The notes under the pieces were generated by a model, which searched no databases, was not told the DNA's origin, and saw only the letters and a list, made by a program, of their open reading frames with translations. This document shows, piece by piece, positions 3,890 to 64,000 of a stretch of 64,000 nt of DNA. The first letter of the stretch is position 1. Each line of letters opens with the position of its first letter. The translations under genes were made by a program, and so were the position numbers. This stretch comes from a candidate division WWE3 bacterium. GTDB lineage: Bacteria; Patescibacteriota; WWE3; UBA101185; UBA10185. The stretch is from positions 629,407 to 693,406 of the forward strand of contig WJKK01000001.1 of the NCBI GenBank assembly GCA_014729135.1, read 5' to 3'.

Positions 3890-4070
3890 AGAAACTCTAA
3901 CCTCAGCCCAAACTCCCAGCCAGGGGCTTTCGCAAAGCGAAAGGCGATGGTTGATCAAAATGCGGGCGCCTTAATGCGAGCATTTTGAACTACCCGAGAA
4001 GTCTGTACTCAGACTTTGAGCTGAGCTGCACCCGAAGCATTTGCCGTAGGCAAATGGTGAGTTGTCTTTT
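3890..4070. other. GC-rich cluster of four or more perfect hairpins (possible structured ncRNA or leader) upstream of mpg
   Basis: Perfect hairpins ctttcgc-aaa-gcgaaag, caaaatgc...gcattttg, agtctg-tact-cagact and catttgcc-gtag-ggcaaatg in a locally GC-rich, non-coding stretch. Confidence 0.3.
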
Positions 4071-4778
4071 CAGCCAAAACAGATAGCGCTAAATAACTCC
4101 CGTAAATCCCAAGCTGATATAATCCCCTCACCCATGATCAACCCCAACCCCAACCTATCCCATCAAAAAGAATACCTAAAACAATACATCCTCCCCAAAG
4201 ACTTCTACTATCAAAAAGACAACAACGCAGTTTCTAAAGCACTATTAGGAAAATACCTCATCCAATTAGATCCCTTTCCTATAGGAGGAGTTATAGTAGA
4301 AACAGAAAGCTACCCCGGAAAGACAGATGTAGCTTCCCATCATCACCATGGAAAAATTACCGACAGAACAAAAGTAATCTTTAATAAAGAAAAAGGCCTT
4401 TTATATGTCTATAAAATTTACGGACTGCATCATTGTTTTGGAATCACTTCCGGAGATGGTGAAGAAAATCATAACGTGACTTTAATTAGAGCCATTAAAC
4501 CAATTTTTGGAATAAAAGAGCTTAAAAAAAGAAGAGGTACAGATAAACTTGCTAATTTATTAAGTGGTCCTGCAAAAATAGCACAGGCTTTAAATATTAC
4601 AAAACAAAATTATGGCCAATGCGTCAGAACTTCCAACATTATTATTTGTGATCTTGAGGACTTTGAAGATTTTGAAATAGAAACGGATACGCGTATAGGC
4701 ATTGAAAACTATGAGAGCGAGCATGAACAAAAGGATTGGCGCTTTTTTGTAAAGGGATGTGAATTTTTGTCACAATAA
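4062..4778 (+). CDS. mpg: DNA-3-methyladenine glycosylase (Mpg/AAG family)
   Basis: VETESYPGKTDVASHHHHGKITDRTKVIF...GLLYVYKIYGLHHCFGITSG...VTLIRAIKP...RIGIEN...WRFFVKG matches the Mpg signature ETEAY..D.ASH....T.R...MF...G..YVY..YG.H.C.N. The true start may be the internal Met at about 4134. Confidence 0.8.
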   Translation: MSFQPKQIALNNSRKSQADIIPSPMINPNPNLSHQKEYLKQYILPKDFYYQKDNNAVSKALLGKYLIQLDPFPIGGVIVETESYPGKTDVASHHHHGKITDRTKVIFNKEKGLLYVYKIYGLHHCFGITSGDGEENHNVTLIRAIKPIFGIKELKKRRGTDKLANLLSGPAKIAQALNITKQNYGQCVRTSNIIICDLEDFEDFEIETDTRIGIENYESEHEQKDWRFFVKGCEFLSQ

Positions 4779-4945: not shown

Positions 4946-6283
4946 ATGATACAGGGCATAGGAGCTTTCCTTAAATCCAACAAAAACATCCTGGGGATAT
5001 TTGCAATAACACTCCTTATCTACCTAATAAACCTACCCATAGACTACTCTAAAAGCTTGCAAACCAAAGTACCCAGGAGACTTCTAACCTCCAACGACGT
5101 AACCTCTGCCACTTTCCTGCCCTACGAAGTAATAAAAAACAAAACACTTCGCTTCTCAAAATCAACTGTAGACGCTATGCAAAGAGCACAAGTCTATGAA
5201 CCCTTTGTATACTCCGTCATTAACAAAAACGGAAAATTCCTCTCAGCGATGCCAATACTAGCAGGCATCATGGCCATCCCCATTTACATAATTCCCATCC
5301 TATTAAACAAAATACCCGCTCTTCAATACTACAAAGATCTCGTAAACATTTTAACCTTAGGACGCATTGCTGCCTCCTTTTATACAGCAATATCCGTAGC
5401 AATCTTTTTTCTAATACTCAAAGAAATCGACAAAATTAAAAACTTCAAAACGAACGCTTGGAATTACGCTTTCGTGGCCTTCTTTGCCTTTGGAACAAAC
5501 GTCTACTCCATTGCCAGTAGAGCCTTATATCAGCACACCTCCTCGCTATTATTTGTAACTTTAATCATTTATTTTGCGTTAAAAAGCCTTAAAGATGACA
5601 ACTATGTAAAGTACTTGGGCCTATTTGCGGGATTTTTATATTTAGCAAGACCTTTAAATTTAGTTTTTGTGGCGCTATTAACTGTATATGTCTTTTTTAT
5701 GCACAAAAAGGAGTTTGTTAAATACTTGCTTTATGCCTTACCGACAGCTTTATTGCTTTTTGCTTATAACATATATGCTTGGGGCAATCCGCTAACAACG
5801 GAGTATGTGGAAAAAAGCGATACAAGTTTTTCAACGCCTTTAATTGTAGGCTTGTCGGGTTACCTTTTTAGTCCGGCAAGAAGCTTTTTATTTGTAACTC
5901 CTCCTTTGGTTGTAGGTTATTTTGCAATGATACGCACCTTTATAAAAAGGAATAAGGAGAAATTGGACATTCTGTTAATTACTTTAAGCGCGACCTTTTT
6001 AATAGTTTTAATACTTTATTCCAAATGGCATGATTGGGAAGGCGGGGATAGGTTTGGATATGGTTTTTTAACGGAGTGGGTTCCTGTAATGGCGGTGCTT
6101 TCGTACATATATATTAAGCCCATGAAAAGGTTGGGAAAGGTTATTATTGGAGTGTTGATGTTGTGGTCAGTGGTAGTACAAACGAATGCCGTATGGATTA
6201 GAAAAAGCAGGTGTAGTGGTGCCTCGCATAATTGGAGTTTTTATTGCATAACACCTCAGTTTTTTAAAAAGCAGAATTACTAA
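4946..6283 (+). CDS. polytopic membrane protein, possible GT-C type glycosyltransferase
   Basis: 445 aa with about 10 or more hydrophobic helices and short loops; no soluble catalytic domain. Confidence 0.4.
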   Translation: MIQGIGAFLKSNKNILGIFAITLLIYLINLPIDYSKSLQTKVPRRLLTSNDVTSATFLPYEVIKNKTLRFSKSTVDAMQRAQVYEPFVYSVINKNGKFLSAMPILAGIMAIPIYIIPILLNKIPALQYYKDLVNILTLGRIAASFYTAISVAIFFLILKEIDKIKNFKTNAWNYAFVAFFAFGTNVYSIASRALYQHTSSLLFVTLIIYFALKSLKDDNYVKYLGLFAGFLYLARPLNLVFVALLTVYVFFMHKKEFVKYLLYALPTALLLFAYNIYAWGNPLTTEYVEKSDTSFSTPLIVGLSGYLFSPARSFLFVTPPLVVGYFAMIRTFIKRNKEKLDILLITLSATFLIVLILYSKWHDWEGGDRFGYGFLTEWVPVMAVLSYIYIKPMKRLGKVIIGVLMLWSVVVQTNAVWIRKSRCSGASHNWSFYCITPQFFKKQNY

Positions 6284-18175: not shown

Positions 18176-19366
18176 CTAGAAACGTAAGATTGCGCCCAAA
18201 TCATCCTTGAGATTAAGCTCGGTGGACATAGCATCCGTCAACGGCACAATCTCTCCACCTGATAAAAGCGTCTTAACGACAAGAAAGTTCACTAAATCCC
18301 GGTTAGTAAAACCTCTCTCTTCTTCTACTATTGCGCCTCTGTTTTCAACGGAATAGTTGCCCCAAATTGTACGGGACGGATTCACAAACAGCACACTTAT
18401 TTTCTCCTCAAAAGCTGCGGGAGCCACCTTTTCCAGCCCTTCCACAACTTGTTCGGATGCCTTATGCTCCTTATAAGAATCTACAAAGTCCATCCGCTTT
18501 TCATCTATGCGATCTTTAACGATCTTCCAGGCTTCTTTAAGAATGTCCTCTGCAGCAGCTTCCTCCGGATTACCTTCAACATAGTCATCGGCTAAATTCG
18601 GATACTTGCCGAAATCTGAAAACTTGTTGTAAAGCTCTGTATCTGCAGCCAAAATCACTAGAGGCCTCTTATCATCTTCGATATCTGTGACAAAATGGTT
18701 CAGAGCCCAATCTACCTCATCCAGAAAAACCTTCTGCTGTTCATCAATAGCAGACTCCTGACTACCGTGTCCGTGTGCTCTTTGTGTCGGCTTTTCTCCC
18801 GGACGCGCTCCTCCCGCGGGATGTCTCTGAAGCTGGCTCTGAATATCATGAGTCCTTAGGGTTTCTTCTATATCTTCGGGCATTACGGTAGGCTCTTTTT
18901 TCTCCCAGTTGCGATTAACGCCTCTGTAAAGGGTAATGTGAGAATAACTAAGCGCTAAAACGTAATAAGTGGAGGATCCAAAGACGTAGGGGACTAGGGG
19001 CTTAACATTGGGAATGTCACTCACATAAAATTGTGCATCTACATTTTTGGGGAACTTGATCATTTCAGTGTAAGTTTCTGATCTAAAGATTGCTAAGCCG
19101 TCTTTTTGCTCCTGCCAAAAGGTAGTGTTTTGTTGTATTTTTTTGAGGGGTTTTAGCAAGTCATTTATTTTTGAAGCCGGCAGCGTCGACTTTTTAAGGA
19201 GTTTTTCTATTTCGTCGGTTTTATTTTTGAGGTGAATTTGTGCCTTTTCGTTGTTTTGCCAAACCGGACTCGTCGGAATGTAAAGAGAAATAACAGGAGG
19301 TTTGACCTGCCGCTGTAAAAGATTTTTAAGACGTTTTCTGGGATTCTGCTGTTTGGTAATTTTCAT
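18176..19366 (-). CDS. hypothetical protein (possible eRF1/Pelota-like fold)
   Basis: 396 aa. Central Gly/His-rich loop HPAGGARPGEKPTQRAHGHGSQE between two mixed alpha/beta regions; family not securely recognised. Confidence 0.4.
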   Translation of the reverse strand: MKITKQQNPRKRLKNLLQRQVKPPVISLYIPTSPVWQNNEKAQIHLKNKTDEIEKLLKKSTLPASKINDLLKPLKKIQQNTTFWQEQKDGLAIFRSETYTEMIKFPKNVDAQFYVSDIPNVKPLVPYVFGSSTYYVLALSYSHITLYRGVNRNWEKKEPTVMPEDIEETLRTHDIQSQLQRHPAGGARPGEKPTQRAHGHGSQESAIDEQQKVFLDEVDWALNHFVTDIEDDKRPLVILAADTELYNKFSDFGKYPNLADDYVEGNPEEAAAEDILKEAWKIVKDRIDEKRMDFVDSYKEHKASEQVVEGLEKVAPAAFEEKISVLFVNPSRTIWGNYSVENRGAIVEEERGFTNRDLVNFLVVKTLLSGGEIVPLTDAMSTELNLKDDLGAILRF

Positions 19367-19437
19367 AAATTCTTATGTTTATGGTTGCAAAGAGTTTTTA
19401 GAACTTCTTTAAATTGTTGTATGTTTTTTGTAAGAGA

Positions 19438-19465
19438 GGGGACAGTCCTCTTAGAGGACTGTCCC
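19438..19465. promoter_or_regulatory. perfect 13-bp-arm palindrome GGGACAGTCCTCT-TA-AGAGGACTGTCCC abutting a TATAAT box upstream of xseA
   Basis: Inverted repeat read directly from the sequence; TATAAT lies at 19467-19472 and the xseA ATG at 19479. Confidence 0.5.
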
Positions 19466-19478
19466 TTATAATAAATCC

Positions 19479-23836: not shown

Positions 23837-23886
23837 TACTTTTTTATGGTAACACAACTGGAAAAGTAACAAAGGGACATAACAAA

Positions 23887-23914
23887 GGGACAGTCCTCTT
23901 AAAGGACTGTCCTC
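23887..23914. promoter_or_regulatory. GGGACAGTCCTCTTAAAGGACTGTCC palindrome (same motif family as at 19438) in the pyk upstream region
   Basis: Inverted repeat ggacagtcct/aggactgtcc read from the sequence. Confidence 0.45.
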
Positions 23915-24050
23915 TTTTGAAATCCTAGTTTAACTAGAATAGGAGAAAATGCCTCGATAGTCCCTCTGAACTCTAGGTAAAACCTTTCCCTGCACAAAAA
24001 CCATATAACAATTTCTACTTATAGTAGATTTACTGAAACAAAATTAGAAA

Positions 24051-24077
24051 GGACTGTCCCCGTAGAGGACTGTCCCC
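24051..24077. promoter_or_regulatory. two direct copies of the GGACTGTCCCC half-site upstream of the Hjc-like gene
   Basis: ggactgtcccc-gtaga-ggactgtcccc. Confidence 0.4.
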
Positions 24078-24123
24078 TCATCCCGATTCCCGCATCCTCC
24101 CACAAGTATGATAGGATTAAAAG

Positions 24124-29386: not shown

Positions 29387-29413
29387 AAACCCATTCTACC
29401 AAGGTTGGGGGTA

Positions 29414-29439
29414 GGGGACAGTCCTCTTAAAGGAATGTC
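29414..29439. promoter_or_regulatory. GGGGACAGTCCTCTTAAAGGAATGTC motif copy in the divergent promoter region
   Basis: Same motif family as at 19438 and 23887, with a degenerate right arm. Confidence 0.4.
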
Positions 29440-29541
29440 AAGTGTAGCGAAGCTACCTTGACTTCTTAGGTAAATGAGAGCGAAGCGATCATTTAGCTAT
29501 GCTGTCCCCTTCCCTCTCATCGAACCTGCTATACTAAAAGT

Positions 29542-36569: not shown

Positions 36570-36646
36570 GCGAGAGTAGCTCAGCTGGCTAGAGCATCTC
36601 CCTTCCAAGGAGAGGGTCGCGGGTTCGAATCCCGTCTCTCGCTCCA
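36570..36646 (+). tRNA. tRNA-Gly (anticodon TCC)
   Basis: Manual cloverleaf: acceptor gcgagag/ctctcgc, D-arm gctc..gagc, anticodon stem tctcc/ggaga with loop cttccaa, T-arm gcggg-ttcgaat-cccgt, 3' tcca. Confidence 0.85.
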
Positions 36647-36962
36647 TTTGTGTTCGCAACGCGAACCCAAATGGCTGATCATCCGCCTACGGCGGATGAA
36701 CTGCCTAACAAGTCCGTAGGACTTGTTACATCCATCGAAATGCTCGCGTTCGCTCGCATTTGCGATGGCCCGTACAACTTTTGACAAAGTTGTACGGTCG
36801 CAAACAAGAGTAATTAGCATTTCGATGACTCAGGTAAATAGGAGCGTACTAAAGCGACTATTTAGCTGTGCCTAACAAGTCGCAATGCGACTTGTTATAG
36901 TCTACAACTTTTAGCAAAGTTGTACGGTCACAAACAAAAATAACTAGCATTTCGATGACTTA
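36647..36962. repeat. block of consecutive hairpins with an internal ~95-135 nt tandem duplication, immediately downstream of tRNA-Gly
   Basis: Hairpins gttcgc-aac-gcgaac, catccgcc-tac-ggcggatg, taacaagtcc-gta-ggacttgtta, ccgtacaacttt-tga-caaagttgtacgg. The second unit repeats taacaagtcgc-aat-gcgacttgtta and acaacttt-tag-caaagttgt. Both units end with aaacaa..ta..tagcatttcgatgact. Confidence 0.5.
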
Positions 36963-37016
36963 ACAAAATGAAAAAAAGTTGAGAGGCTACTATAAAAATT
37001 TATAAAACACAAAAAT

Positions 37017-39029: not shown

Positions 39030-40631
39030 TCACTCAACAACATCCCCCGAAAAAAACAAAAAACCATCCCCCTTAGCCAACACCTCTCCACTAGGACACT
39101 CCATAGAACTTAAACTCTGCGGATCCTCTATATAAATAAAAACTTCAGGATCCTCATTCCAACCAAATCCCTGCATGTAATACTTGGCCAAGCGATACTT
39201 CTCATTAGAATAGTAAGTTTCAACTCCCAAATCCAAAGCCACCTTACGAACATCCTTCCAGTTACGACTATAAGGAAATCCAAAAATGCCCTCCACACGT
39301 TCACCGGAACTAATATTTGCAGGCATAAAACCCAAAATGTACTTTTTAGCATGCCAAGGATATTCGGGAGTAGTGTCAATAAATGCCTGAAAATTAAAGG
39401 AGGTTGTAGTAAAAAGCACTAAAACAAGCAGTGCAAAAAGAAAATTGCGAACAATACCTTTTTCCTTTAAAACAGCAGCCAGCTGACTAGCAAACAAAAT
39501 ACTAGCCGGTATAAAAACCACATAAATATGTGTCAACGCCTTTTCCATAACAAAAAAGTAGGCTACTAAACTTAATACAAACCAGCCCACAATTAAATTG
39601 TTAAAATTAAACTCCCGGCCAAAAAAGTAACTAACAAGCACGGCCAAACCAAAAACCAAACTAGATATATATAGCAGTTCATTACCCGCTCCCCGGAAAT
39701 ACCGAAAAAGACCTAACAAAAACAAGCCAATAACTAAAATACCACGATGCTTGCTAATAATTTGCTGCCGATAAATCCATAGGAAGCAGCCCACCAAGGA
39801 CAAAATCAAAAACTCCAAGGGATGATACATTTTTAAGATCTTTATCGAATAAAAAATGTTGTCATAAATGAAATCTGATTGAATTCGAGCAAAAAGCAAA
39901 TAGCGAATTATTTCCGAGGGTTCCGGCGTTCTCAGGAAAAGCACAGTAAAGTAAATTGCGGGCATTATAAGAGTAGTAGCAATGTATATGAAAGCAGGCT
40001 TAAAGCGCTTTGAAGCCATTAAAAGGAAGAGTATGGGAAGTATGAAGCTAAAAGAGTCGTAGTGAAACAGAAGGCCAACTCCGGAAAATACGCCGGATAA
40101 AATTAGGAGTCTTTTCTGTTTGGATTTAGCGGGAGCGGCTAACCCATCCAACTGAGCATATTTCAGCATTAGCCAACAAACGATAACTGAAATTAAAATT
40201 ACAAAGACTTGATACTGCACTATTCGAGAAAAAGCTATCATTAAGCCGGATAAAGAAATTAAGGAAGTGGCCAAAAGGGCCGTCATTTTATCTTTATGTT
40301 TCCTTACAAAAAAGTAAAGAAGAGGCAATAAAGCGATACCGGTTAAAGCAAAAGGTAAGCGAACATAAAGTTCAATGTTTTTTAGGTTCTCTACGTTGAA
40401 ATCATAGGCAAAGATGTTTGCCAAAGCTGAAACCGCATATTGTCCGGGGCCCTTCGTTCGCGTAAAGATGAACTTAAAAAATTCCTGCTCCCCGAAGAGG
40501 TAGTTTTGGGCAGCCACTTCATCCCCTTGAAAATCTGAATAGCCTAATTTTGCCAATCTGAAATAAGCGCCTAATAAGATAATGAGAATTATAAAAATTT
40601 TTTCGGCTGATTGAGGAAATTTCTTATTCAC
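39030..40631 (-). CDS. GT-C fold glycosyltransferase (ArnT/PMT-like)
   Basis: 533 aa polytopic. Loop 1 QGDEVAAQNYLFGEQEFFKFIFTRTKGPGQYAV carries a DE motif. Paralogue of the 32873..34504 gene. Confidence 0.6.
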   Translation of the reverse strand: MNKKFPQSAEKIFIILIILLGAYFRLAKLGYSDFQGDEVAAQNYLFGEQEFFKFIFTRTKGPGQYAVSALANIFAYDFNVENLKNIELYVRLPFALTGIALLPLLYFFVRKHKDKMTALLATSLISLSGLMIAFSRIVQYQVFVILISVIVCWLMLKYAQLDGLAAPAKSKQKRLLILSGVFSGVGLLFHYDSFSFILPILFLLMASKRFKPAFIYIATTLIMPAIYFTVLFLRTPEPSEIIRYLLFARIQSDFIYDNIFYSIKILKMYHPLEFLILSLVGCFLWIYRQQIISKHRGILVIGLFLLGLFRYFRGAGNELLYISSLVFGLAVLVSYFFGREFNFNNLIVGWFVLSLVAYFFVMEKALTHIYVVFIPASILFASQLAAVLKEKGIVRNFLFALLVLVLFTTTSFNFQAFIDTTPEYPWHAKKYILGFMPANISSGERVEGIFGFPYSRNWKDVRKVALDLGVETYYSNEKYRLAKYYMQGFGWNEDPEVFIYIEDPQSLSSMECPSGEVLAKGDGFLFFSGDVVE

Positions 40632-46127: not shown

Positions 46128-47456
46128 TTAAATAGGGTGCCAAATGTGAAACCCATCTTTCCATTGGGCTAGATACCAATAGCAAGATATCCAATATAAA
46201 ACGGTTACCAAATAAAACTTCCAATTATTAAAAGGGACAGTCCTTGGAGGGGACAGCACATCGAAATCCTCCTTTGTCGGATTGTCGATGAGTTGTCGAA
46301 GTAGCAACTTCGACACTCCTTTGAAAGGACTGTCCTCTGATTTCAATGTGCTGTCCCTTAAAACACCTATAAGAAATATGGGAAAACCCCACAACAAGTA
46401 CGTGCGATTTAGAACTGGTGTTAGGAGATAGAAGGATAGAAAGGGGAGTGACGCAATGGAAAATTTGTTTTTTATGTGCAAACGCCCTGTTAGATTTTTA
46501 ACCTTACCTTCTTTACAGAAGTTATTTACGAACTGCAACAACTTATTGGCAGTTATTAAAATCCACCCGGAGAAGATGCTGCCTAAAGAATAAAATCCAA
46601 ATGGAATAATCCTAAAAAGCTCTACTGAATAATAGTAACTAATGTAATACAAAAAAGGACGGCCTTGAACAAAGCGATCTCCATGAACAAGGAGAGCTCC
46701 TTGAATGTAAGTCCAAAAATCCTGAAAATTTGTCATAAAGGGCAAACTAAAAGCAAAGGCAGTAATAAATCCGGCAGTCAAAAACTTTAGAGGTTTTTTA
46801 GACCGGAACAAAAACAACGGAAAAGTTATAACTGCAAAGGTCTTAAACAAAACAGAAAGCGCAAAGAAAAGCCCGGTCAAAACGTCATCCTCTTCCAAGT
46901 GATAAAGTGCTAAAAGCAAAAATAAAATAGGCACTGAATCGAAACCGGCCAGAGAATTTTTCAAAACCAAATAAAAATTAAACATCCAGGCTGTAACTGC
47001 AAAAAGAGCAGCCAACCTATCCTTTTTAGACAGGTACCACCAAAGAAAAATTCCAACCCCTAAATTAGCTAAGATTCCCGGCAAATGCAGCAGAAAAAAC
47101 GGAGAACACCAGTTAAAATCCAGCTTTAAAATCAAAGTGCAAATTACCGAAAACACATACAAAAAAGTATTTACATATAAAATCCCCGGAAAATAAGCAT
47201 AACCCTTGTTTGTGGGATCGTTTTCCAAGTTGGCATAAGAAGTTAGCGTCCATTCATAGGGATTTTTCCCTGCAACTAAATCGTAAATGGCTTTTTTATG
47301 TGTGGTGTAATCCCCTCCGGAGGTGGCTTGAAGCGCAAGATTTAAGCGCTTTATAGACCCAAATCCTAAAACTAAAATTGCAAATAAGGATAACAATTTA
47401 GGAACATAAACTTTTAAAACAGTTGAGGACCTTTTATTACAAGGAAACAAACACAT
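46128..47456 (-). CDS. GT-C fold glycosyltransferase, GT87/DUF2029-like (paralogue of the 50144..51445 gene). The C-terminus is uncertain because it reads through a large palindrome
   Basis: Shared blocks with the paralogue: DLVAGKNPYEWT, YAYFPGILYVNTF, HGDRFVQGRPFLYY, PVLNRTYLLWGFPIFLIGVL. The 3' ~110 codons overlap the GGACAGTCC composite palindrome at 46234-46358. Confidence 0.5.
   Translation of the reverse strand: MCLFPCNKRSSTVLKVYVPKLLSLFAILVLGFGSIKRLNLALQATSGGDYTTHKKAIYDLVAGKNPYEWTLTSYANLENDPTNKGYAYFPGILYVNTFLYVFSVICTLILKLDFNWCSPFFLLHLPGILANLGVGIFLWWYLSKKDRLAALFAVTAWMFNFYLVLKNSLAGFDSVPILFLLLALYHLEEDDVLTGLFFALSVLFKTFAVITFPLFLFRSKKPLKFLTAGFITAFAFSLPFMTNFQDFWTYIQGALLVHGDRFVQGRPFLYYISYYYSVELFRIIPFGFYSLGSIFSGWILITANKLLQFVNNFCKEGKVKNLTGRLHIKNKFSIASLPFLSFYLLTPVLNRTYLLWGFPIFLIGVLRDSTLKSEDSPFKGVSKLLLRQLIDNPTKEDFDVLSPPRTVPFNNWKFYLVTVLYWISCYWYLAQWKDGFHIWHPI
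46234..46358. repeat. ~125-nt composite palindrome built from GGACAGTCC-family arms plus an inner GTCGAAGT hairpin
   Basis: gggacagtccttggaggggacagcacatcgaaatcc ... gttgtcgaagtagcaacttcgacac ... ggactgtcctctgatttcaatgtgctgtccc; the outer arms are near-perfect reverse complements. Confidence 0.5.
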
Positions 47457-47541: not shown

Positions 47542-47739
47542 ATGTACAATTGGTCAACGGATGAAAAGAAGCTTAAAAATCACCCTCAAAAACACAAACT
47601 CTGGAAACTGGAGCAACTAATCAACTTTGGCCTTGGAAAAGAAAGGTTAAACCGAAAAGATCTTAAAAGAAATCTGAAAAAACTAACAATAGACCCTCAA
47701 AAAAAGAAATATCTTCAATTCCTACTAAAAAAGGCCTAA
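47542..47739 (+). CDS. small basic protein, possible cognate partner (antitoxin-like) of the downstream AbiEii-like gene
   Basis: 65-aa Lys-rich ORF ending at the ATG of the 47739 gene (4-nt overlap ATGA). Confidence 0.25.
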   Translation: MYNWSTDEKKLKNHPQKHKLWKLEQLINFGLGKERLNRKDLKRNLKKLTIDPQKKKYLQFLLKKA

Positions 47740-48410
47740 TGAGTCTACTTACAAAGCAACAGAAAAAGTTTTTACACTTATTTTCGCAGGAGAAACTTTT
47801 AACAAAAAGGTTCTACCTTACAGGAGGAACCGCCCTTATAGAGTATTACATTCCCTATAGATACTCAGATGACTTGGACTTTTTTTCCGAGGCAGAAATC
47901 AACATCGACGCCGTTTTAACTTTTTTTAAATCAATCAAAAAAGAACTAGGCTATAAAGAATTCGATTACAACACTTCGTATAACCGAAATTTAATCTTCT
48001 TAAACTTTGGAGATTATGTTCTAAAAACCGAATTCACATACTTTCCTTTTCCGCCAATTCAGATAAATAAGCCTAAAGAAGGCATCCAAATAGATAGTCT
48101 CATTGATATAGCTGTAAACAAACTCTTTACTATATATCAAAACCCAAGGGGGCGTGATTTCATGGATTTATATATGATTCAAGAGAAAGAGAATTTTGAC
48201 ATGGAGCTTTTAATATCGCGTGCTCGTGCTAAATTTGACTGGCATGTTGATCCATTAAAACTGGGGGCGCAATTTATGTTAGCTAAGGAAACTAAGGACG
48301 AGCCCGTTTTGGTAAAAGATCTAAAAAGAGAGAATTGGGAAGACTATTTCATTGAAGCTGCAAAAAGCTTAGAGAGTGAAATTTTCGAAAGTAAGGATTC
48401 CCAGACTTAG
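47739..48410 (+). CDS. AbiEii/AbiGii-like nucleotidyltransferase (type IV TA toxin family fold)
   Basis: FYLTGGTALIEYYIPYRYSDDLDFF matches the GGTAL....HR.S.DLDF nucleotidyltransferase motif. Confidence 0.55.
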   Translation: MSLLTKQQKKFLHLFSQEKLLTKRFYLTGGTALIEYYIPYRYSDDLDFFSEAEINIDAVLTFFKSIKKELGYKEFDYNTSYNRNLIFLNFGDYVLKTEFTYFPFPPIQINKPKEGIQIDSLIDIAVNKLFTIYQNPRGRDFMDLYMIQEKENFDMELLISRARAKFDWHVDPLKLGAQFMLAKETKDEPVLVKDLKRENWEDYFIEAAKSLESEIFESKDSQT

Positions 48411-48448: not shown

Positions 48449-50074
48449 TTATTTACACTTATAAATTTTCCAATAGGGGAGGGATCTAAAGCGTATTTTT
48501 GTTTCAAGTGTGCAGTGGGAATAGTCGGGAGGTAGTTCTTCATGATTTGCAGCCACTAAATATTCCACAGTCCAACCGTTAGGTAAATCCTGATTTAACG
48601 TGTAGATCTTTCCTTTTACAAAAGGACGCAGCCGATGCACCTTGTTAGATGTAATTACTATTTTAAGATCAGAGGGATTGTCTTTGGAGTTTAAGTAATC
48701 ACCAACATTACTACATAACGAACAGCCAAACTGATCTTTCCCTTTGATGCTAGGATATAAAAGATAATTTGGAAAATAATAGGCAGTAGTGGAAACGGCA
48801 AGTAAAAAACTTGCTAATAAAAAGTATTTTTTATTCTTATTGGAGAAGGTTTTTTTTATTTGAACTAAAAGATACCCTCCAAAAAAAGCTAAAAAGGGAA
48901 TCAAAGGCAAAAGATAGCGATCCATTTTTTGAGCAACTAAAGACATCTGTACAAAATAGAAAAGTGCATAACAAAGAATTAAAATTGCTGATTTCTCGCG
49001 CGAGAAAACTTTATTAAAACTTCTTAATAATTCCTTAATATTCCTAGAGGATAAGTCAAACGAAGTAAAAATGTCACTAAGAAAATTACGAATATAAAGA
49101 GCAATACCTAAAAAAGCAGAAACCAGAAATACAAGAGTTAAATCTCTATACAGGGGCTCAAAGTAATCAAAAAACCCATTAAAAATTTCGGAGGAGGCAT
49201 CAGCACCATCGCGACCAACTCGCGCTAAAAACAATCCCTCGTTAATAAAAATAATTTTAAGGTTTTCCAGCGGTTCTATCCACATATCAGGGAAAACTGC
49301 TACAAAAGTAAAAGCACATGTAAAAAACCAAATTAAAACCGCTTTAAGATAAAACCAGAAATTACGACGTTGTGTAATGAAATCCGAAAAAAGTGCTAAA
49401 ACAAAATAAGGCAGTAAAAAAATAGCGGAGGATTTAGAAAGCAATGCCAATCCTGCGAAAACTCCCGAAAAAATAAGCCATTTCCATTTAGGTACTTCAG
49501 AAGAACTCAAAAAAAGTAAAAGCAAAAGTGCGGAAATTCCCATAAACGCCGTAACAGTGCTGTCTGCATGAAAATTCCGGGAAAGGCCAATATAAAAGGG
49601 TTGCAAACCGAACAACAAAACCGAGAAAAAAGCTAACTTCTTAGAAAAAAGCTTAGAAACAACTAAATAGTAAACCAAAATAAATCCCAAACTAACAAGA
49701 ATTAAAGGAGCAATTACAGCCGTATGAACCAAATGGAAAGTGTCGTAAGTCCATATTTGAGGGCGAAAACCATAATGCCACTCGTATAAATTCAAGAACG
49801 TCTCCAAACTTAACCCGGAAAGCCAATGAACCGTAATTCCCGGCTTGGGATTTTGCAAAGTTTCGCCCCAATCATGATCCTGAATTTCGGAAATAAACTC
49901 CTCTGTACGGGAATACCAAAACTGGGCATCATTGTTTATGGAGGCGCGTCCCAAACGATAGAAACTAAAGAAGGTTATTAAGAGGAAAAGAACAACAAAG
50001 AGTTTGTCGTAAAAGGAAAATTGAGATGCAAAAGTACTGACATTTTCCTTAAAGTTTTTGCAAAAAGAAACCAT
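48449..50074 (-). CDS. GT-C fold glycosyltransferase (ArnT/PMT-like)
   Basis: 541 aa polytopic with an ArnT-like N-terminal loop; C-terminal soluble domain of ~100 aa. Confidence 0.55.
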   Translation of the reverse strand: MVSFCKNFKENVSTFASQFSFYDKLFVVLFLLITFFSFYRLGRASINNDAQFWYSRTEEFISEIQDHDWGETLQNPKPGITVHWLSGLSLETFLNLYEWHYGFRPQIWTYDTFHLVHTAVIAPLILVSLGFILVYYLVVSKLFSKKLAFFSVLLFGLQPFYIGLSRNFHADSTVTAFMGISALLLLLFLSSSEVPKWKWLIFSGVFAGLALLSKSSAIFLLPYFVLALFSDFITQRRNFWFYLKAVLIWFFTCAFTFVAVFPDMWIEPLENLKIIFINEGLFLARVGRDGADASSEIFNGFFDYFEPLYRDLTLVFLVSAFLGIALYIRNFLSDIFTSFDLSSRNIKELLRSFNKVFSREKSAILILCYALFYFVQMSLVAQKMDRYLLPLIPFLAFFGGYLLVQIKKTFSNKNKKYFLLASFLLAVSTTAYYFPNYLLYPSIKGKDQFGCSLCSNVGDYLNSKDNPSDLKIVITSNKVHRLRPFVKGKIYTLNQDLPNGWTVEYLVAANHEELPPDYSHCTLETKIRFRSLPYWKIYKCK

Positions 50075-50143: not shown

Positions 50144-51445
50144 ATGTTTAAAAAGGCAACATCTAAAATACCTCCTAAAAAGAACCTGGAAAAATCCACA
50201 AAAATCAAAAAAAGCGAACTTACAAAAAGCATAAGCATCACTCTTTTAATAACAACAATTCTAATTTCCTTAATCTTACGCCTAGTAATCTTTCAAGAAG
50301 AGGGAGGCGACCACCTAATCTATAAAAAAGCCGTTCTCGACTTTTGCGCCGGGGAAAATCCATACACCTACACATACAAATCCTTTACAAACAAACAAGC
50401 AAATTTGGACCGCGGCTATGCATACTTCCCAACGCTTTTGTACATTCTTACCTTTATGTGGAAGATTAACACCATCACTGCAACAGAAATGCCAACCGCC
50501 ATTCTCTGGAAAATTCCGGTACTTTTGGCAGATATGGGGATTGCTGCTCTCTTATACAACTACTTTGCTAAACGAAAAAAACATCTCTTGGCAACGCTAG
50601 CAACAAGCATTTGGCTCTTAAACCCCCACTTTTTAACCCGCTATGAATATACATTACTTGATCCCATTCAAGTCCTTTTCACATTTTTAGCCCTAAAATC
50701 CTTAAGCAAAAACTCTTACAAAACGGGAATCTTATATGCTCTGGCGGTAAGCACAAAGTTGATTCCGGCAATACTTTTTCCAATATTTTTCATTAAAACC
50801 AAAAATAAAGTGAAATTCCTAATGGTATTTGGCCTGGTATTTCTTCTAATCAGTTTGCCCTTTCTTACAAGTAGAAGCAATATTTTCTATTACATACAAG
50901 GAACGTTTCTGGTTCATGGAGAGAGATTTATACAAGGCAGGCCTTTCCTTTCTTTTCTGACACTTTTTACTCAGAAGGCAGGTCTATCTTTTTATCAGGA
51001 AAAATTTACAAGTCTTTTCTCTAAAATTGCTCTTTTATCAGGACCTATGTTAACAACGATTCTTCTCCTTAAAGACAAAAACAAGAACAAGTATTTATTA
51101 ACCGCAACTTCGTTTGCTCTTTATTTCCTTTTAACACCGGTTTTTAATAGGACGCATTTTTTATGGGGATTTCCTTTCTTTTTAATAGCCCTTTATCGAT
51201 TAACTAAGATAAAAAAACCAATGTGGACTTATGTTTCATGGGGAGGGCTTTACGCGGCGTTTTTCTTTTACCTTCTTTTTTGGTCAAAGGGTCTAAAGCC
51301 CCCTTCACAAGAACATCCTTATGTTTGGATGGATAATGCAGACTCCCTGGAGTTGGAGTGGCCCCTAAAACAGAGGAGCCGGCAAAAGTTTTATGAGTAT
51401 CGTGGGAAATTTTACAGATGGACTAATAGAGAAGAAAAGTTGTAA
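50144..51445 (+). CDS. GT-C fold glycosyltransferase, GT87/DUF2029-like
   Basis: DFCAGENPYTYTY, YAYFPTLLYILTF, HGERFIQGRPFLSF and PVFNRTHFLWGFPFFLIALY are shared with the 46128..47456 gene. Confidence 0.5.
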   Translation: MFKKATSKIPPKKNLEKSTKIKKSELTKSISITLLITTILISLILRLVIFQEEGGDHLIYKKAVLDFCAGENPYTYTYKSFTNKQANLDRGYAYFPTLLYILTFMWKINTITATEMPTAILWKIPVLLADMGIAALLYNYFAKRKKHLLATLATSIWLLNPHFLTRYEYTLLDPIQVLFTFLALKSLSKNSYKTGILYALAVSTKLIPAILFPIFFIKTKNKVKFLMVFGLVFLLISLPFLTSRSNIFYYIQGTFLVHGERFIQGRPFLSFLTLFTQKAGLSFYQEKFTSLFSKIALLSGPMLTTILLLKDKNKNKYLLTATSFALYFLLTPVFNRTHFLWGFPFFLIALYRLTKIKKPMWTYVSWGGLYAAFFFYLLFWSKGLKPPSQEHPYVWMDNADSLELEWPLKQRSRQKFYEYRGKFYRWTNREEKL

Positions 51446-51449
51446 ACCT

Positions 51450-53306
51450 TTAATCAGTAACGCAATAACCGCCAATAACAGGAGTCTTACCAAGTAAACT
51501 GTAAATTGGAGAAAAGTAAGAATTCTTGTAACTAAAATCCTCCTCATGCCACTCCAAAGGTTCAACGCCTGCCGTAGCTTTATTCTCAAACACCTCCGGG
51601 TTCTTATAGAAATAATTAAAGGTTCTACTGTTTTCTGTGCGATTTAAAAATGACAGTAAAATTCCGGGATTTTCCGGTTCAATTACATCTTTTTGAACAA
51701 AACATTCATAATTCAAGCCTCCCGGAATTGCTTCCATTACATCCGCGGGATTATCAAACCTGCCAACATGCATGTAACGCGTAAAGGAACCGCGAACAAA
51801 GACATTAGTAACAAGATTATGCTCCTCCTGAAATTTATAACCCAGCTTCCAGCGCAACTCCTCTTCGGTGTAAAAATCCCAAGTTAAAAACACTGTTACT
51901 ATAGCCAAGAAAGAAAGAGCAATAAACCCGCAGCTACGAGCATAAAAACCCTTTAGATCTACCAACAAACCACTCCTTGATAAGTAAACACCCACTAGAA
52001 GCGTCAAAAAAGGAAAGGCAGCAATAAAATAACGATCATAAAAATCGCTGGTTAAAAGGCTCCCAACAAAAACAACTCCAAAAAGGCCAAGAACAGTTAA
52101 ACTTAAAGAAAGCATTTGTAAATCAAAATCCTTGCGACAACAAGAGGCAATAAAACCTTCCAGCCAGTCAATAAATAAGTAAACTCCCAACAAAAAAGTG
52201 AATGATAAGTAAACGCTTAGACCCAACTTAAAAGGGATGTTGTCAAAAAGGCTAATCCAGTGGGTGAAATCGGATTTTGTGTAAAAACCTTCAATGTAAA
52301 AGACGTTGCCAACCGCAAAAATATCCTTTTGATAAAAAAGCGGAAAAATTAACAAAGCGGCAACAAGACTAATCCATTTAACTTTTACAGGAATCTTTTT
52401 GTAAGCCACATAAACAAGTGGTGAAAGGAAAAAGGCCACATAAGGAATTAAATAGGGATACATCTTAATTTGCTTATAGAAATTTTCTAAATCAACGGGA
52501 TTGCCTAAAATACGCGTTTCTGAAGCTTCAACATATTGTGGCCATTTTGTGTACAAGAACAAAAGGCTTATAAAAGGCACTACTAAAATAACGAGCTCCT
52601 TCCACTTAAACTTTTTTGTGTGAAATTGATCATGTGCCAAAACTAAAAAGTAGGCTATTAAAAAGACGAGGCCAAATTGGCGGATATAAAGACTAGCGCC
52701 TGCTAAAAGACTTGCTACTAAGAGGTGGGTAATATTTCGTTTTTCTAAATAGTGAAGGAAAAGGTAAAGACTCCAGATGGCAAAGGTTAAAAAGTAGATT
52801 TCGGTCATGTAGGAAAGAGCAGAGGTGAAAAAGAGGGGATTAAAGATGATTGTTAGTAGTGTTAGGGCTGTTAGGGTTTTTTTAGTTTTTTTGGGCTGCA
52901 GTTTTTGGAGGGTTTTGTAGGCACCAAATAAGAAAGCAAAGCTAAAAAGGATGGTTAAAATGCGGAGGGACAGGAAGCTAAATCCAAAAAGTTTTGTCCA
53001 GAGAATTCCTAAAAGGCCTTGCAGAACAAAGGCTGTGTCAATTAGGCGGTTTTTTGCAAAGATGCCCTGTGAAAAGAGGCGGGTGTGAATGTAGAAGTCC
53101 CAATCGTCGTTTACAGCGTGGTTTCCCCAAGGGCTTACAAGGAGGATGGCTAGGATGTAGAGAGCGAGGGTTATGGTTAAGGGGTTTTTGAGGATTGGGG
53201 GGAGGGAGGAGGTTTTTGGGATTTTGACTTTATGGAGAATTCTACAAAGGGGGTTTTGTGATTTTTGAAAGATTTTCATTTTTTTTAGTTTTGCAGGAAG
53301 TTTCAT
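51450..53306 (-). CDS. large polytopic membrane protein, GT-C-like
   Basis: 618 aa with 12 or more TM helices and a C-terminal soluble domain; loop HAVNDDWDFYIHTRLF near the N-terminus. Confidence 0.5.
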   Translation of the reverse strand: MKLPAKLKKMKIFQKSQNPLCRILHKVKIPKTSSLPPILKNPLTITLALYILAILLVSPWGNHAVNDDWDFYIHTRLFSQGIFAKNRLIDTAFVLQGLLGILWTKLFGFSFLSLRILTILFSFAFLFGAYKTLQKLQPKKTKKTLTALTLLTIIFNPLFFTSALSYMTEIYFLTFAIWSLYLFLHYLEKRNITHLLVASLLAGASLYIRQFGLVFLIAYFLVLAHDQFHTKKFKWKELVILVVPFISLLFLYTKWPQYVEASETRILGNPVDLENFYKQIKMYPYLIPYVAFFLSPLVYVAYKKIPVKVKWISLVAALLIFPLFYQKDIFAVGNVFYIEGFYTKSDFTHWISLFDNIPFKLGLSVYLSFTFLLGVYLFIDWLEGFIASCCRKDFDLQMLSLSLTVLGLFGVVFVGSLLTSDFYDRYFIAAFPFLTLLVGVYLSRSGLLVDLKGFYARSCGFIALSFLAIVTVFLTWDFYTEEELRWKLGYKFQEEHNLVTNVFVRGSFTRYMHVGRFDNPADVMEAIPGGLNYECFVQKDVIEPENPGILLSFLNRTENSRTFNYFYKNPEVFENKATAGVEPLEWHEEDFSYKNSYFSPIYSLLGKTPVIGGYCVTD

Positions 53307-57031: not shown

Positions 57032-57727
57032 TCAGAGAGGACTTTTAATATTTCTTAATTTCGGATTTGTAACTTGAGTATATCTTTGTGTGGTTCTAAT
57101 ATTTTGATGACCGAGTAATTCTTGAACATACCTAATATCAACTCCGTTTTCTAATAAGTGAGTTGCAAAACTATGTCGTAGTGAATGAAATGTCGCCTCC
57201 TTCTTAATTTCGGCGTTTCTCATAGCATTAGTAAAAATTTTTTGTGCTGTACGAGTTGTAAGTTTTCCCCCTCGTTCACTTGGAAAAACATATTCGTTTG
57301 GCTTCCCAGAATTAATTATCATTTTTAGATCATTTTTAATCTTCTCTGGGATAATTGTTATTCTATCCTTTTTCCCCTTGGCTTTCTTAATATGAAGTGT
57401 AAGATTATTAATATCTACGTCTTTGACTTTTAAGTTGACAACTTCACTAACTCTTAATCCTGCTCCATATGCTACGGAAAGGATCAATCTATGCTTATTA
57501 TTATTTGTTACTTCAGTCAATCTTTTGATTTCTTTACGATTTAGTATTACTGGAAGACTTTTGTTGTGTTTCGCAGATTTAATATCTATTTTGGAGGAAG
57601 TTTTTACAACGTTATAGTAATAAAACTTAATTGAATTCAAATATAGATTCCTTGTCTTAGCAGAGAGTCCTTTATCTGAACAGGTGAGTAGAAAGTTTCG
57701 TATGTTATCGATATCTAACTGCTTCAA
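57032..57727 (-). CDS. tyrosine-type site-specific recombinase/integrase (short, 231 aa)
   Basis: GLRVSE (catalytic Arg), HSLRHSFATHLL (H-x-x-R) and LGHQNIRTTQRYTQV (Tyr nucleophile). TTG start. Much shorter than IntI/XerC. Confidence 0.75.
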   Translation of the reverse strand: MKQLDIDNIRNFLLTCSDKGLSAKTRNLYLNSIKFYYYNVVKTSSKIDIKSAKHNKSLPVILNRKEIKRLTEVTNNNKHRLILSVAYGAGLRVSEVVNLKVKDVDINNLTLHIKKAKGKKDRITIIPEKIKNDLKMIINSGKPNEYVFPSERGGKLTTRTAQKIFTNAMRNAEIKKEATFHSLRHSFATHLLENGVDIRYVQELLGHQNIRTTQRYTQVTNPKLRNIKSPL

Positions 57728-63235: not shown

Positions 63236-64000
63236 CTACACCACAAAATCAATATACTTAGGCAGATACTCCTTATAAGAATCAATAAAACCCTCCAAAA
63301 CAGCCGGCGACTCCAACAGAGGCTCCAAATCCTTATATAGAAATTCGCTATCAATAACCAACACCTTCTCCTTAAAATCCTCTAGTGCTTTGGAAAGCGT
63401 CTTATCTGCTAACAATACCTTTAAACGCTCAATATTCATTTTCAACTCGAAAGAAGACTTAGAAGACAACTGCAAAAACCAATAAAGATCATATACATCA
63501 CGCCCTTTAAACGGAATCTTCTGAAACTTTCCTTTAAAGAAGGAACGGTTTAAAAATGCTACAAACTTATTAGCAAAAAGCGTAGGTAAGTCATAAGAAG
63601 TAACGAAAAACTGAAACTTACCCGCCGTAATAAGGTTTTTATCCGTATCATAAACTCCTGCGGTCTCCTGTGAAACATCCACACGCACAAATATATCCTC
63701 GGGAATACGATCCTCATAAAATTCAAGCTCCTTAAGAAGAGGAAATTTGAAGTAAACTGTATTCCTATTACCCGAGATAGAATAGTCAATTGTTTTATAC
63801 TGAACTTTTGAACGAAAATACGTCAGCACATCCTTGCTAAACTGCTCAATGTCAAAACTACCTAAAAAGTCAAAATCGAGATCTTCAGACAGGCGATTTA
63901 AACCGTAAACCTTGCGCAAACATGTGCCCCCTGTAAAAAGCAGTTCATTATAGTCGGTGCTTGTAAAAACAAAATTTAAAATGTAATTTTGGATCTCTTC
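63236..64000 (-). CDS. AbiEii/AbiGii-like nucleotidyltransferase, 5' end beyond the window
   Basis: The called ORF starts at a TTG at 63919. The frame stays open upstream to the window edge and encodes ...NELLFTGGTCLRKVYGLNRLSEDLDFDF, the canonical GGTxL...R.SEDLDF motif. So the gene continues past position 64000. Confidence 0.5.
   Translation of the reverse strand, partial: EEIQNYILNFVFTSTDYNELLFTGGTCLRKVYGLNRLSEDLDFDFLGSFDIEQFSKDVLTYFRSKVQYKTIDYSISGNRNTVYFKFPLLKELEFYEDRIPEDIFVRVDVSQETAGVYDTDKNLITAGKFQFFVTSYDLPTLFANKFVAFLNRSFFKGKFQKIPFKGRDVYDLYWFLQLSSKSSFELKMNIERLKVLLADKTLSKALEDFKEKVLVIDSEFLYKDLEPLLESPAVLEGFIDSYKEYLPKYIDFVV

Follow-up and report, generated by a model that had tools for sequence, protein, structure and literature searches.

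A genome-specific palindromic repeat as a probable part of the coding sequence of a GT-C glycosyltransferase gene in a candidate division WWE3 bacterium

The glycosyltransferase gene and the palindromic element within it

A 64-kb window of contig WJKK01000001.1 (the window being the whole stretch of DNA analysed here), from the 864-kb genome of a candidate division WWE3 bacterium, contains a composite palindromic element inside a gene for a membrane glycosyltransferase. The element is spanned by a minus-strand open reading frame (ORF; 46128..47456) of 442 amino acids (aa), the product of which is 100% identical to NCBI MBD3366358.1 (P0001), which carries the name 'DUF2029 domain-containing protein' and is encoded by a candidate division WWE3 bacterium on a contig of 864,248 bp, the genome being streamlined (~0.86 Mb). 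A total of 105 homologues were retrieved for this protein, many of them with Pfam PF09594 (GT87); the protein itself has no Pfam match at E ≤ 0.01. Its AlphaFold2 model (mean predicted local distance difference test score, pLDDT, 88.8; predicted template modelling score, pTM, 0.89) matched GT-C enzymes in Foldseek with probabilities of 0.94–1.0, including STT3/AglB, ALG3, ALG9, PimE (9dm7, GT87) and ArnT. Given the PF09594 homologues, the NCBI name and the resemblance of the model to GT-C enzymes including the GT87 enzyme PimE, it is reasonable to regard the protein as a GT87-like glycosyltransferase of the GT-C fold, the label it carried in the original prediction, which had been made from the DNA alone. 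Synteny is kept with the closest orthologues, a gene for 222–225 aa lying downstream on the opposite strand, followed by a RecD-like helicase gene either directly or beyond an ABC-transporter gene. The features of the gene and element are as follows.

46128..47456, minus strand: host gene, GT87/DUF2029-like membrane glycosyltransferase with a predicted GT-C fold, 442 aa (ORF, homologues, AlphaFold2, Foldseek)
46234..46357, minus strand: composite palindromic element, 124 nt, translated as R367-P408 (inverted repeats, folding, G+C)
46250..46357, no strand assigned: 108-nt stretch between the 19-nt inverted arms, matching in size the net surplus of 36 codons relative to the closest orthologues
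46235..46245, plus strand: arm A, GGACAGTCCTT, pairing with A' over 11 nt (100%)
46325..46335, plus strand: arm A', AAGGACTGTCC, partner of arm A
46250..46268, plus strand: arm B, GGGACAGCACATCGAAATC, pairing with B' at 18 of 19 nt (95%)
46339..46357, plus strand: arm B', GATTTCAATGTGCTGTCCC, an extra inverted copy of B with no counterpart in the intergenic copy
46294..46315, plus strand: inner hairpin, TGTCGAAGT-agca-ACTTCGACA, 9-nt arms (100%)
46235..46259, plus strand: doublet 1, GGACWGTCC-N7-GGACWGTCC, 2 mismatches
46311..46335, plus strand: doublet 2, GGACWGTCC-N7-GGACWGTCC, 2 mismatches
46246..46339, minus strand: segment homologous end to end to the intergenic copy at ~29412-29512 (element 'E'; nhmmer, alignment)
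46228..46233, plus strand: TTAAAA, repeated directly at 46358-46363 across the 124-nt composite; possible target-site duplication

The stretch 46234-46357 is strongly self-complementary, as originally proposed, and the inner hairpin described there is present as a perfect 9-nt pair (46294-46302 / 46307-46315). The same proposal had outer arms of ~35 nt, which do not exist as continuous arms; instead there are two arm pairs, of 11 and 19 nt, that are interleaved in the order A, B ... A', B'. Because of this interleaving both pairs cannot form together in one simple hairpin, while the GGGACAG core found in every unit allows other, nested pairings (A with B', B with A'). At ≤3 mismatches the 19-nt arm B is found at only two sites in the window, 46250-46268 and 46339-46357, and three direct TTGTCG repeats occupy the middle of the element. 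RNA structure prediction, suggested at the outset as a check, gave both strands folds far more stable than those of shuffled sequences: −59.6 kcal/mol for the mRNA-sense strand (z −5.9, a value reached by 0 of 200 shuffles) and −57.7 kcal/mol for the other (z −7.3, likewise reached by no shuffle). The G+C content of the element is 48–50%, compared with 36% elsewhere in the gene and a window-wide value of 38.7%. The frame through R367-P408 is open without a stop, two of the three phases being open in this orientation, and the peptide quoted in the original prediction, EDSPFKGVSKLLLRQLIDNPTKEDFDVLSPPRTVPF, is indeed encoded as residues 374-409. An Rfam scan returned only tRNAs at the gathering threshold, with sub-threshold miRNA and sRNA noise at the element.

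Comparison with homologues and the end of the gene

We aligned the protein with 16 homologues (17 sequences) and subsequently with 97 (98 sequences), the four closest orthologues having 58–62% identity by BLASTP and 65–68% in the alignment. The loop G364..Y415 comprises 52 aa here, 16 aa in each of the four closest orthologues, and 12 to 31 aa (mode 15 aa) among the 97 homologues. Its excess over the closest orthologues is exactly 36 aa (36 codons, 108 nt), and the DNA alignment with two orthologue loci (L019 and L020) likewise gives a net gain of 108 nt. With 46250-46357 removed in silico, the loop reads G-VLTPRTVPFNNWK-FY and 13 aa separate G364 from F414, as in the orthologues. The element-encoded peptide is present in 0 of the 97 homologues, and the sequence on both of its flanks is conserved. 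Conservation across the homologue alignments includes the 29 residues beyond the element (FY...YWYLAQWKDGFHIWHPI), and the closest orthologues share the last 17 aa without a difference, ending in ...YWYLAQWKDGFHIWHPI at the same stop position.

Two options had been put forward for the gene's 3' end, an in-frame insertion or an earlier gene end with the called ORF as a read-through artefact. The conserved C-terminus beyond the element, up to a shared stop, refutes the latter, so that the gene call is correct and a truncation unwarranted, and the conserved flanks together with the absence of the peptide from first 16 and then 97 homologues support the former. Its placement needs correction in one respect: the insert is in frame and near the C-terminus, but it sits in the loop before the last transmembrane helix and not in the C-terminal tail proper. 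In the AlphaFold2 model residues 371-410 have a pLDDT of 49–55, whereas the flanking helices (H358-373 and H412-430) have 93–96, and the model accordingly shows the insert as a weakly ordered protrusion, the rest of the fold being intact. It would be a mistake to read the added 36 aa as a functional domain. A control is provided by the homologue P0026 (locus L024), in which the same loop has independently expanded by 15 aa without palindromy (z +0.46), indicating that the loop tolerates changes in length and that palindromy is nothing inherent in this coding region.

Two other readings of the insert were considered and rejected. MAFFT paired 'FKGVSKLLL' with the orthologue loop 'FKRKRLLVL', which we regard as coincidental, the same DNA fitting the intergenic copy described below far better. 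An intein, an intron and translational bypass were dismissed from the sequence, the insert being 36 aa long, without splice-junction residues, too short for group I/II introns, and open in frame.

The host gene is one of five clustered genes for GT-C membrane glycosyltransferases (39030-40631, 46128-47456, 48449-50074, 50144-51445 and 51450-53306), comprising three PMT_2 genes and two GT87-like paralogues that are 34% identical to each other. An AbiEii toxin gene (47739-48410), preceded by a 65-aa ORF with a one-base overlap, breaks up the cluster; a second AbiEii gene lies at 63236-63919.

A repeat family in the window

All family counts given here cover the 64-kb window. The motif GGACAGTCC occurs nine times, against 0.21 occurrences expected, and GGACWGTCC-N7-GGACWGTCC doublets occupy six sites at ≤3 mismatches against 0.02 expected, four of them intergenic (starting at 19440, 23888, 24051 and 29416) and two in the element (46235-46259 and 46311-46335). 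The doublets are hairpins of 25–27 nt with units spaced 16 bp apart, and in the intergenic doublets the arms are perfect 11-bp inverted repeats around a 5-nt spacer. Four of the five doublet loci fall within the ~12% of the window that is non-coding. Three loci of the family were found in addition to the one in the gene.

29412..29512, plus strand: second full copy, lying in the divergent spacer that separates a 501-aa gene from a DUF4349 gene; fold −55.6 kcal/mol, z −6.5
23888..24075, plus strand: third element (doublet, 138-nt core, doublet), in a divergent spacer upstream of pyruvate kinase
19440..19464, plus strand: solo doublet hairpin in the divergent baeRF/xseA spacer, its 3' flank resembling the flank of arm A at 19 of 20 nt

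The closest relationship is with the second of these loci. The minus strand of 46339-46246 and the intergenic stretch 29405-29520 align from one end to the other (single-sequence nhmmer, E = 2.4e-5), with 60 of 89 positions identical (67%) and with the inner hairpin in the corresponding position; relative to shuffled sequences the global alignment has z 9.5 and the interior alone z 3.2. The common plan of the family is a doublet, a variable core of 51, 59 or 138 nt and a second doublet, with family-wide termini GGGGACAG / CTGTCCCC. The content of the 138-nt core (23913-24050, between pyruvate kinase and a 114-aa ORF) is unrelated to that of the other cores. As judged from sequence, the element is made of DNA from a repeat family present in this genome. 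It had been described as the largest copy of a hairpin family; family membership holds, but the element is a mosaic of several units and not merely an enlarged small hairpin.

Within ~54 kb of relatives' loci, of which ~47 kb (L019-L023) is syntenic with the window, there was neither a GGACWGTCC motif nor a profile match; the syntenic part includes the DUF4349 spacer region in the relative L020. On this comparison the family is lineage-specific, the coding copy and the 29.4-kb copy both being absent from the matching sites in the relatives sampled. Other hairpin families are found in these relatives, and small palindrome families seem to differ from one WWE3 lineage to the next. On the contig of the closest orthologue (L019), a 27-nt hairpin, TGAGAACTCTTCT-c-AGAAGAGTTCTCA, is found in two intergenic spacers (2076-2102 and 4051-4077), and two more hairpins (1255-1316) directly follow the orthologous GT87 gene.

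All four intergenic doublets are located in three divergent, start-to-start spacers (19367-19478, 23873-24123 and 29387-29541). By spacer length, the chance of three loci all falling in divergent spacers is ~0.05, which is suggestive only. The adjoining genes are functionally unrelated, being baeRF/xseA, pyruvate kinase/114-aa ORF and 501-aa ORF/DUF4349, respectively. The first of these encodes a baeRF family 3 protein (release-factor-like, bacterial archaeo-eukaryotic; 18176-19366, E 2e-29) and is divergent from xseA. Two functions for the small hairpins were considered and set aside: one copy fits the pattern of an intrinsic terminator, but all lie between divergent gene starts, and a role of the doublets as −35 promoter elements is inconsistent with their spacing to −10-like hexamers, which ranges from ~2 to ~30 nt (17 nt at 29416).

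A further hairpin-rich spacer (36644-37016) follows the tRNA at 36570-36643 and contains at least six different perfect or near-perfect hairpins, as well as a 67-nt direct repeat (36773-36839 and 36903-36969, 85%, 130-nt spacing). In nhmmer (E 0.025), a module at 36829-36872 (AGGTAAAT..GAGCG..AGCGA..ATTTAGCT) shows similarity to 29466-29500, in the core of the intergenic copy, and the CCGTACAACTT hairpin of this spacer recurs beside a tRNA in the relative L020 (8757-8782). Part of the spacer may be a conserved structured RNA; Rfam identified only the tRNA in this region.

Origin of the element and comparison with known systems

Taken together, these observations make it probable that a genome-specific GGACWGTCC palindromic repeat has been taken into the reading frame of a GT-C glycosyltransferase gene, where it codes for part of the loop that joins the last two transmembrane helices. 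By analogy, the family is best read as similar to repetitive extragenic palindromes (REP) and bacterial interspersed mosaic elements (BIME), or to miniature inverted-repeat transposable elements (MITE), with doublets flanking a variable hairpin core. A mosaic element would have landed or grown in frame within a tolerant loop, any arrival being by the same copy-and-insert process that put its relatives into intergenic spacers, whether transposition or REP-like copying as opposed to growth in place. Ribosomes would read through it into the conserved last helix, because the net gain is 108 nt and the frame has no stop. Survival of the copy may be owed to a net length that is a multiple of three, to the two open phases and to a permissive loop near the C-terminus, the extra peptide forming what would be a loosely ordered protrusion tolerated by the fold. 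The loop probably faces the cytoplasm, K and R being frequent in the orthologue loops (positive-inside rule), and effects of the RNA hairpin on mRNA stability or on translation are conceivable.

Several findings weigh against this explanation. The 101-nt family unit (46235-46335), the 124-nt composite (46234-46357) and the 108-nt net gain do not coincide, and a single clean insertion event is therefore not reconstructable. No frame-compatible target-site duplication was found: the TTAAAA repeat has a 130-nt period, and as the 6-bp target duplication of a 124-nt insert, in a sole event, it was rejected because a gain of 130 nt would frameshift the conserved C-terminus, while the edges of the 108-nt unit, the 101-nt unit and the intergenic copies carry no direct repeat. 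Nothing in the other copies corresponds to arm B', which points to some growth in place, and the window shows no more than three composite copies plus one solo doublet. No transposase or REP-associated tyrosine transposase (RAYT) was found by Pfam among the window ORFs scanned, in which a tyrosine recombinase gene (57032..57727) is the only recombinase. Public genome, metagenome and viral collections yielded no further copy of the 19-nt arm beyond chance single-arm matches, and an exhaustive HMMER search of 1.84 billion representatives recovered no other proteins with the peptide, a set in which representatives at 50% identity may miss inserts.

The individual matches from these searches were all discounted. 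The metagenome scan with the 19-nt arm gave 17 loci, each a single arm without a partner at a G+C content of 32–66%, approximately the number expected by chance, and the viral scans gave no match for either the arm or the doublet. A gapped scan with both 12-nt termini matched one genome only, a Caldilineaceae metagenome-assembled genome (L001, JAGNDO010000041.1, 54% G+C), which is judged a chance and unrelated match because its interior is unrelated and the site lies amid that organism's own nested palindromes. These palindromes (5440-5640; GTGGCGAGTGCCAGCACAT...ATGTGCTGGCACTCGCCAC around GGGACAGCACAT...ATGTGCTGTCCC), which have only the 12-nt search termini in common with the element, adjoin a 233-aa ORF read by eye as an integrase-like recombinase. 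The only HMMER match, P0106, was obtained with a query of two joined open frames and is a tandem-repeat protein of 965 aa (8 stretches) spanning the artificial junction, hence an artefact. A word-index peptide search was uninformative, as a 100-aa query with 50 residues identical to P0001 failed to recover P0001.

The alternative that we take most seriously, while considering it unlikely as the full account, is growth in place, in which a short family unit in the loop was enlarged by template switching or inverted duplication at a quasi-palindrome and not by one mobile arrival. It would explain why B' is a near-perfect inverted copy of B (18/19) that is unmatched in the intergenic copy, and it is consistent with the interleaved arm pairs, which a single transposition leaves unexplained, with the want of a frame-compatible target duplication and with the three TTGTCG repeats in the middle of the element. 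On the other hand, the core can be aligned over its whole length with an independent copy between genes, inner hairpin position included, which implies that at least ~90 nt is family DNA and not a local invention. Growth in place also overlaps in part with the explanation we favour and could account for the extra arm only; at least arm B' may have arisen in this way, for example by template switching at a quasi-palindrome. We consider it improbable that the doublets are instead binding sites of a regulator or site-specific recombinase (~11-5-11 arms), the intragenic cluster then being a functional binding or roadblock site and not selfish DNA. The perfect 11-bp inverted repeats around a 5-nt spacer, the confinement of all four intergenic doublets to three divergent, promoter-bearing spacers and the tyrosine recombinase gene would suit such a role, but the adjoining genes (baeRF, xseA, pyruvate kinase, DUF4349) are unrelated in function, the chance of three divergent spacers, by their length, is only ~0.05, the distances to start codons and −10-like hexamers are inconsistent, and the motif is absent from the relatives' DUF4349 spacer and from the other syntenic loci sampled.

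Since the host protein forms a singleton cluster and the analysis used assembled sequence, a spurious palindromic insertion in a metagenome-assembled genome, through assembly or sequencing error, was also weighed. We judge this highly improbable: the extra DNA amounts to exactly 36 codons, is open in frame and leads into a perfectly conserved C-terminus, it is homologous to a locus 17 kb away with units of the family at four other sites, and the contig is 864 kb long. The least credible alternative, and one already largely refuted, is an ordinary selected, lineage-specific loop with incidental palindromy, or a true gene end before the element. The loop does vary from 12 to 31 aa across the family; nevertheless, the peptide is conserved in no homologue, the expanded loop of P0026 shows no palindromy, the DNA matches non-coding intergenic copies, and the conserved C-terminus excludes an early gene end.

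A bolder version of the insertion explanation, which we regard as rather doubtful, would see in the doublet-core-doublet elements a mobile repeat system, lineage-specific and still active, within an ultra-small genome of the candidate phyla radiation (CPR). The enzyme would not be a recognised RAYT or insertion sequence (IS) transposase but possibly the resident tyrosine recombinase acting on the 11-5-11 palindromes, and the elements would repeatedly seed new peptide segments in proteins in the manner of the Rickettsia palindromic elements (RPE) discussed below. If true, this would amount to an RPE-like route of protein evolution in Patescibacteria. In either version, the repeat family offers a ready marker for strain comparison and for empty-site alleles in this WWE3 lineage.

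Three groups of known elements invite comparison. RPE, as summarised in PMC10969869 (Ogata et al. 2000), are ~100–150 bp long and occur both between genes and in frame within unrelated genes, where the peptide is tolerated by the host fold. The WWE3 element is similar in size (108–124 nt), in its strong hairpin (−58 to −60 kcal/mol) and in its in-frame position within an intact gene, with 36 added codons, no stop, a conserved C-terminus and a confidently predicted fold. It differs in that only one in-frame copy is seen in the window and no recurring peptide in unrelated proteins was found, in being a mosaic of 9-bp units and in its host, WWE3/Patescibacteria and not Rickettsia; the likeness is one of outcome, and a relationship in sequence is not expected. 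The REP, BIME and REPIN elements of proteobacteria are short, G+C-rich, imperfect palindromes that are mostly extragenic and genome-specific, and that form mosaics of ~100–200 nt in alternating orientation and with spacers of variable length (PMC3733652, PMC3184786). The WWE3 doublets resemble them in length (25–27 nt, within the 20–40 nt used as a criterion), over-representation and mainly extragenic location, and in forming mosaics, here with cores of 51, 59 and 138 nt. In contrast to REP/BIME, they have no conserved GTAG/CGTC tag (GTAG precedes one of five units, at 29410-29413, the others having AGAG, GGAG, CAAA and TGAG) and no RAYT among the scanned window ORFs, they lie in divergent (5') spacers where REP-like elements are normally at 3' ends, and one copy is intragenic and translated. 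Bacterial MITEs with in-frame fusions include Coxiella QMITE1/2, ERIC, BOX and the Anabaena MITEs; these are small, non-autonomous, hairpin-forming elements with terminal inverted repeats that are occasionally found in ORFs, often near 3' ends (PMC5896051, PMC10969869). The terminal inverted repeats of the WWE3 element (19-nt arms at 95%, 11-nt arms at 100%) are MITE-like, but the element has no unambiguous target-site duplication or identified parent IS, and the cores differ between copies in length and sequence.

No report linking CPR bacteria or Patescibacteria to REP- or MITE-like repeats was found in the limited literature collection searched. We do not claim membership in the RPE, REP/BIME or MITE families, because there is no GTAG/CGTC tag or frame-compatible duplication, neither a recurrent peptide nor a mobilising enzyme was found, and the phylum is a different one. 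The phenomenon is already known from Rickettsia and other bacteria, and this is one case with a familiar explanation; its outcome is the same as that of the RPE and MITE in-frame fusions. The in-frame domestication, or at least the tolerance, of palindromic repeats that is best known from Rickettsia would thereby extend to a streamlined CPR bacterium.

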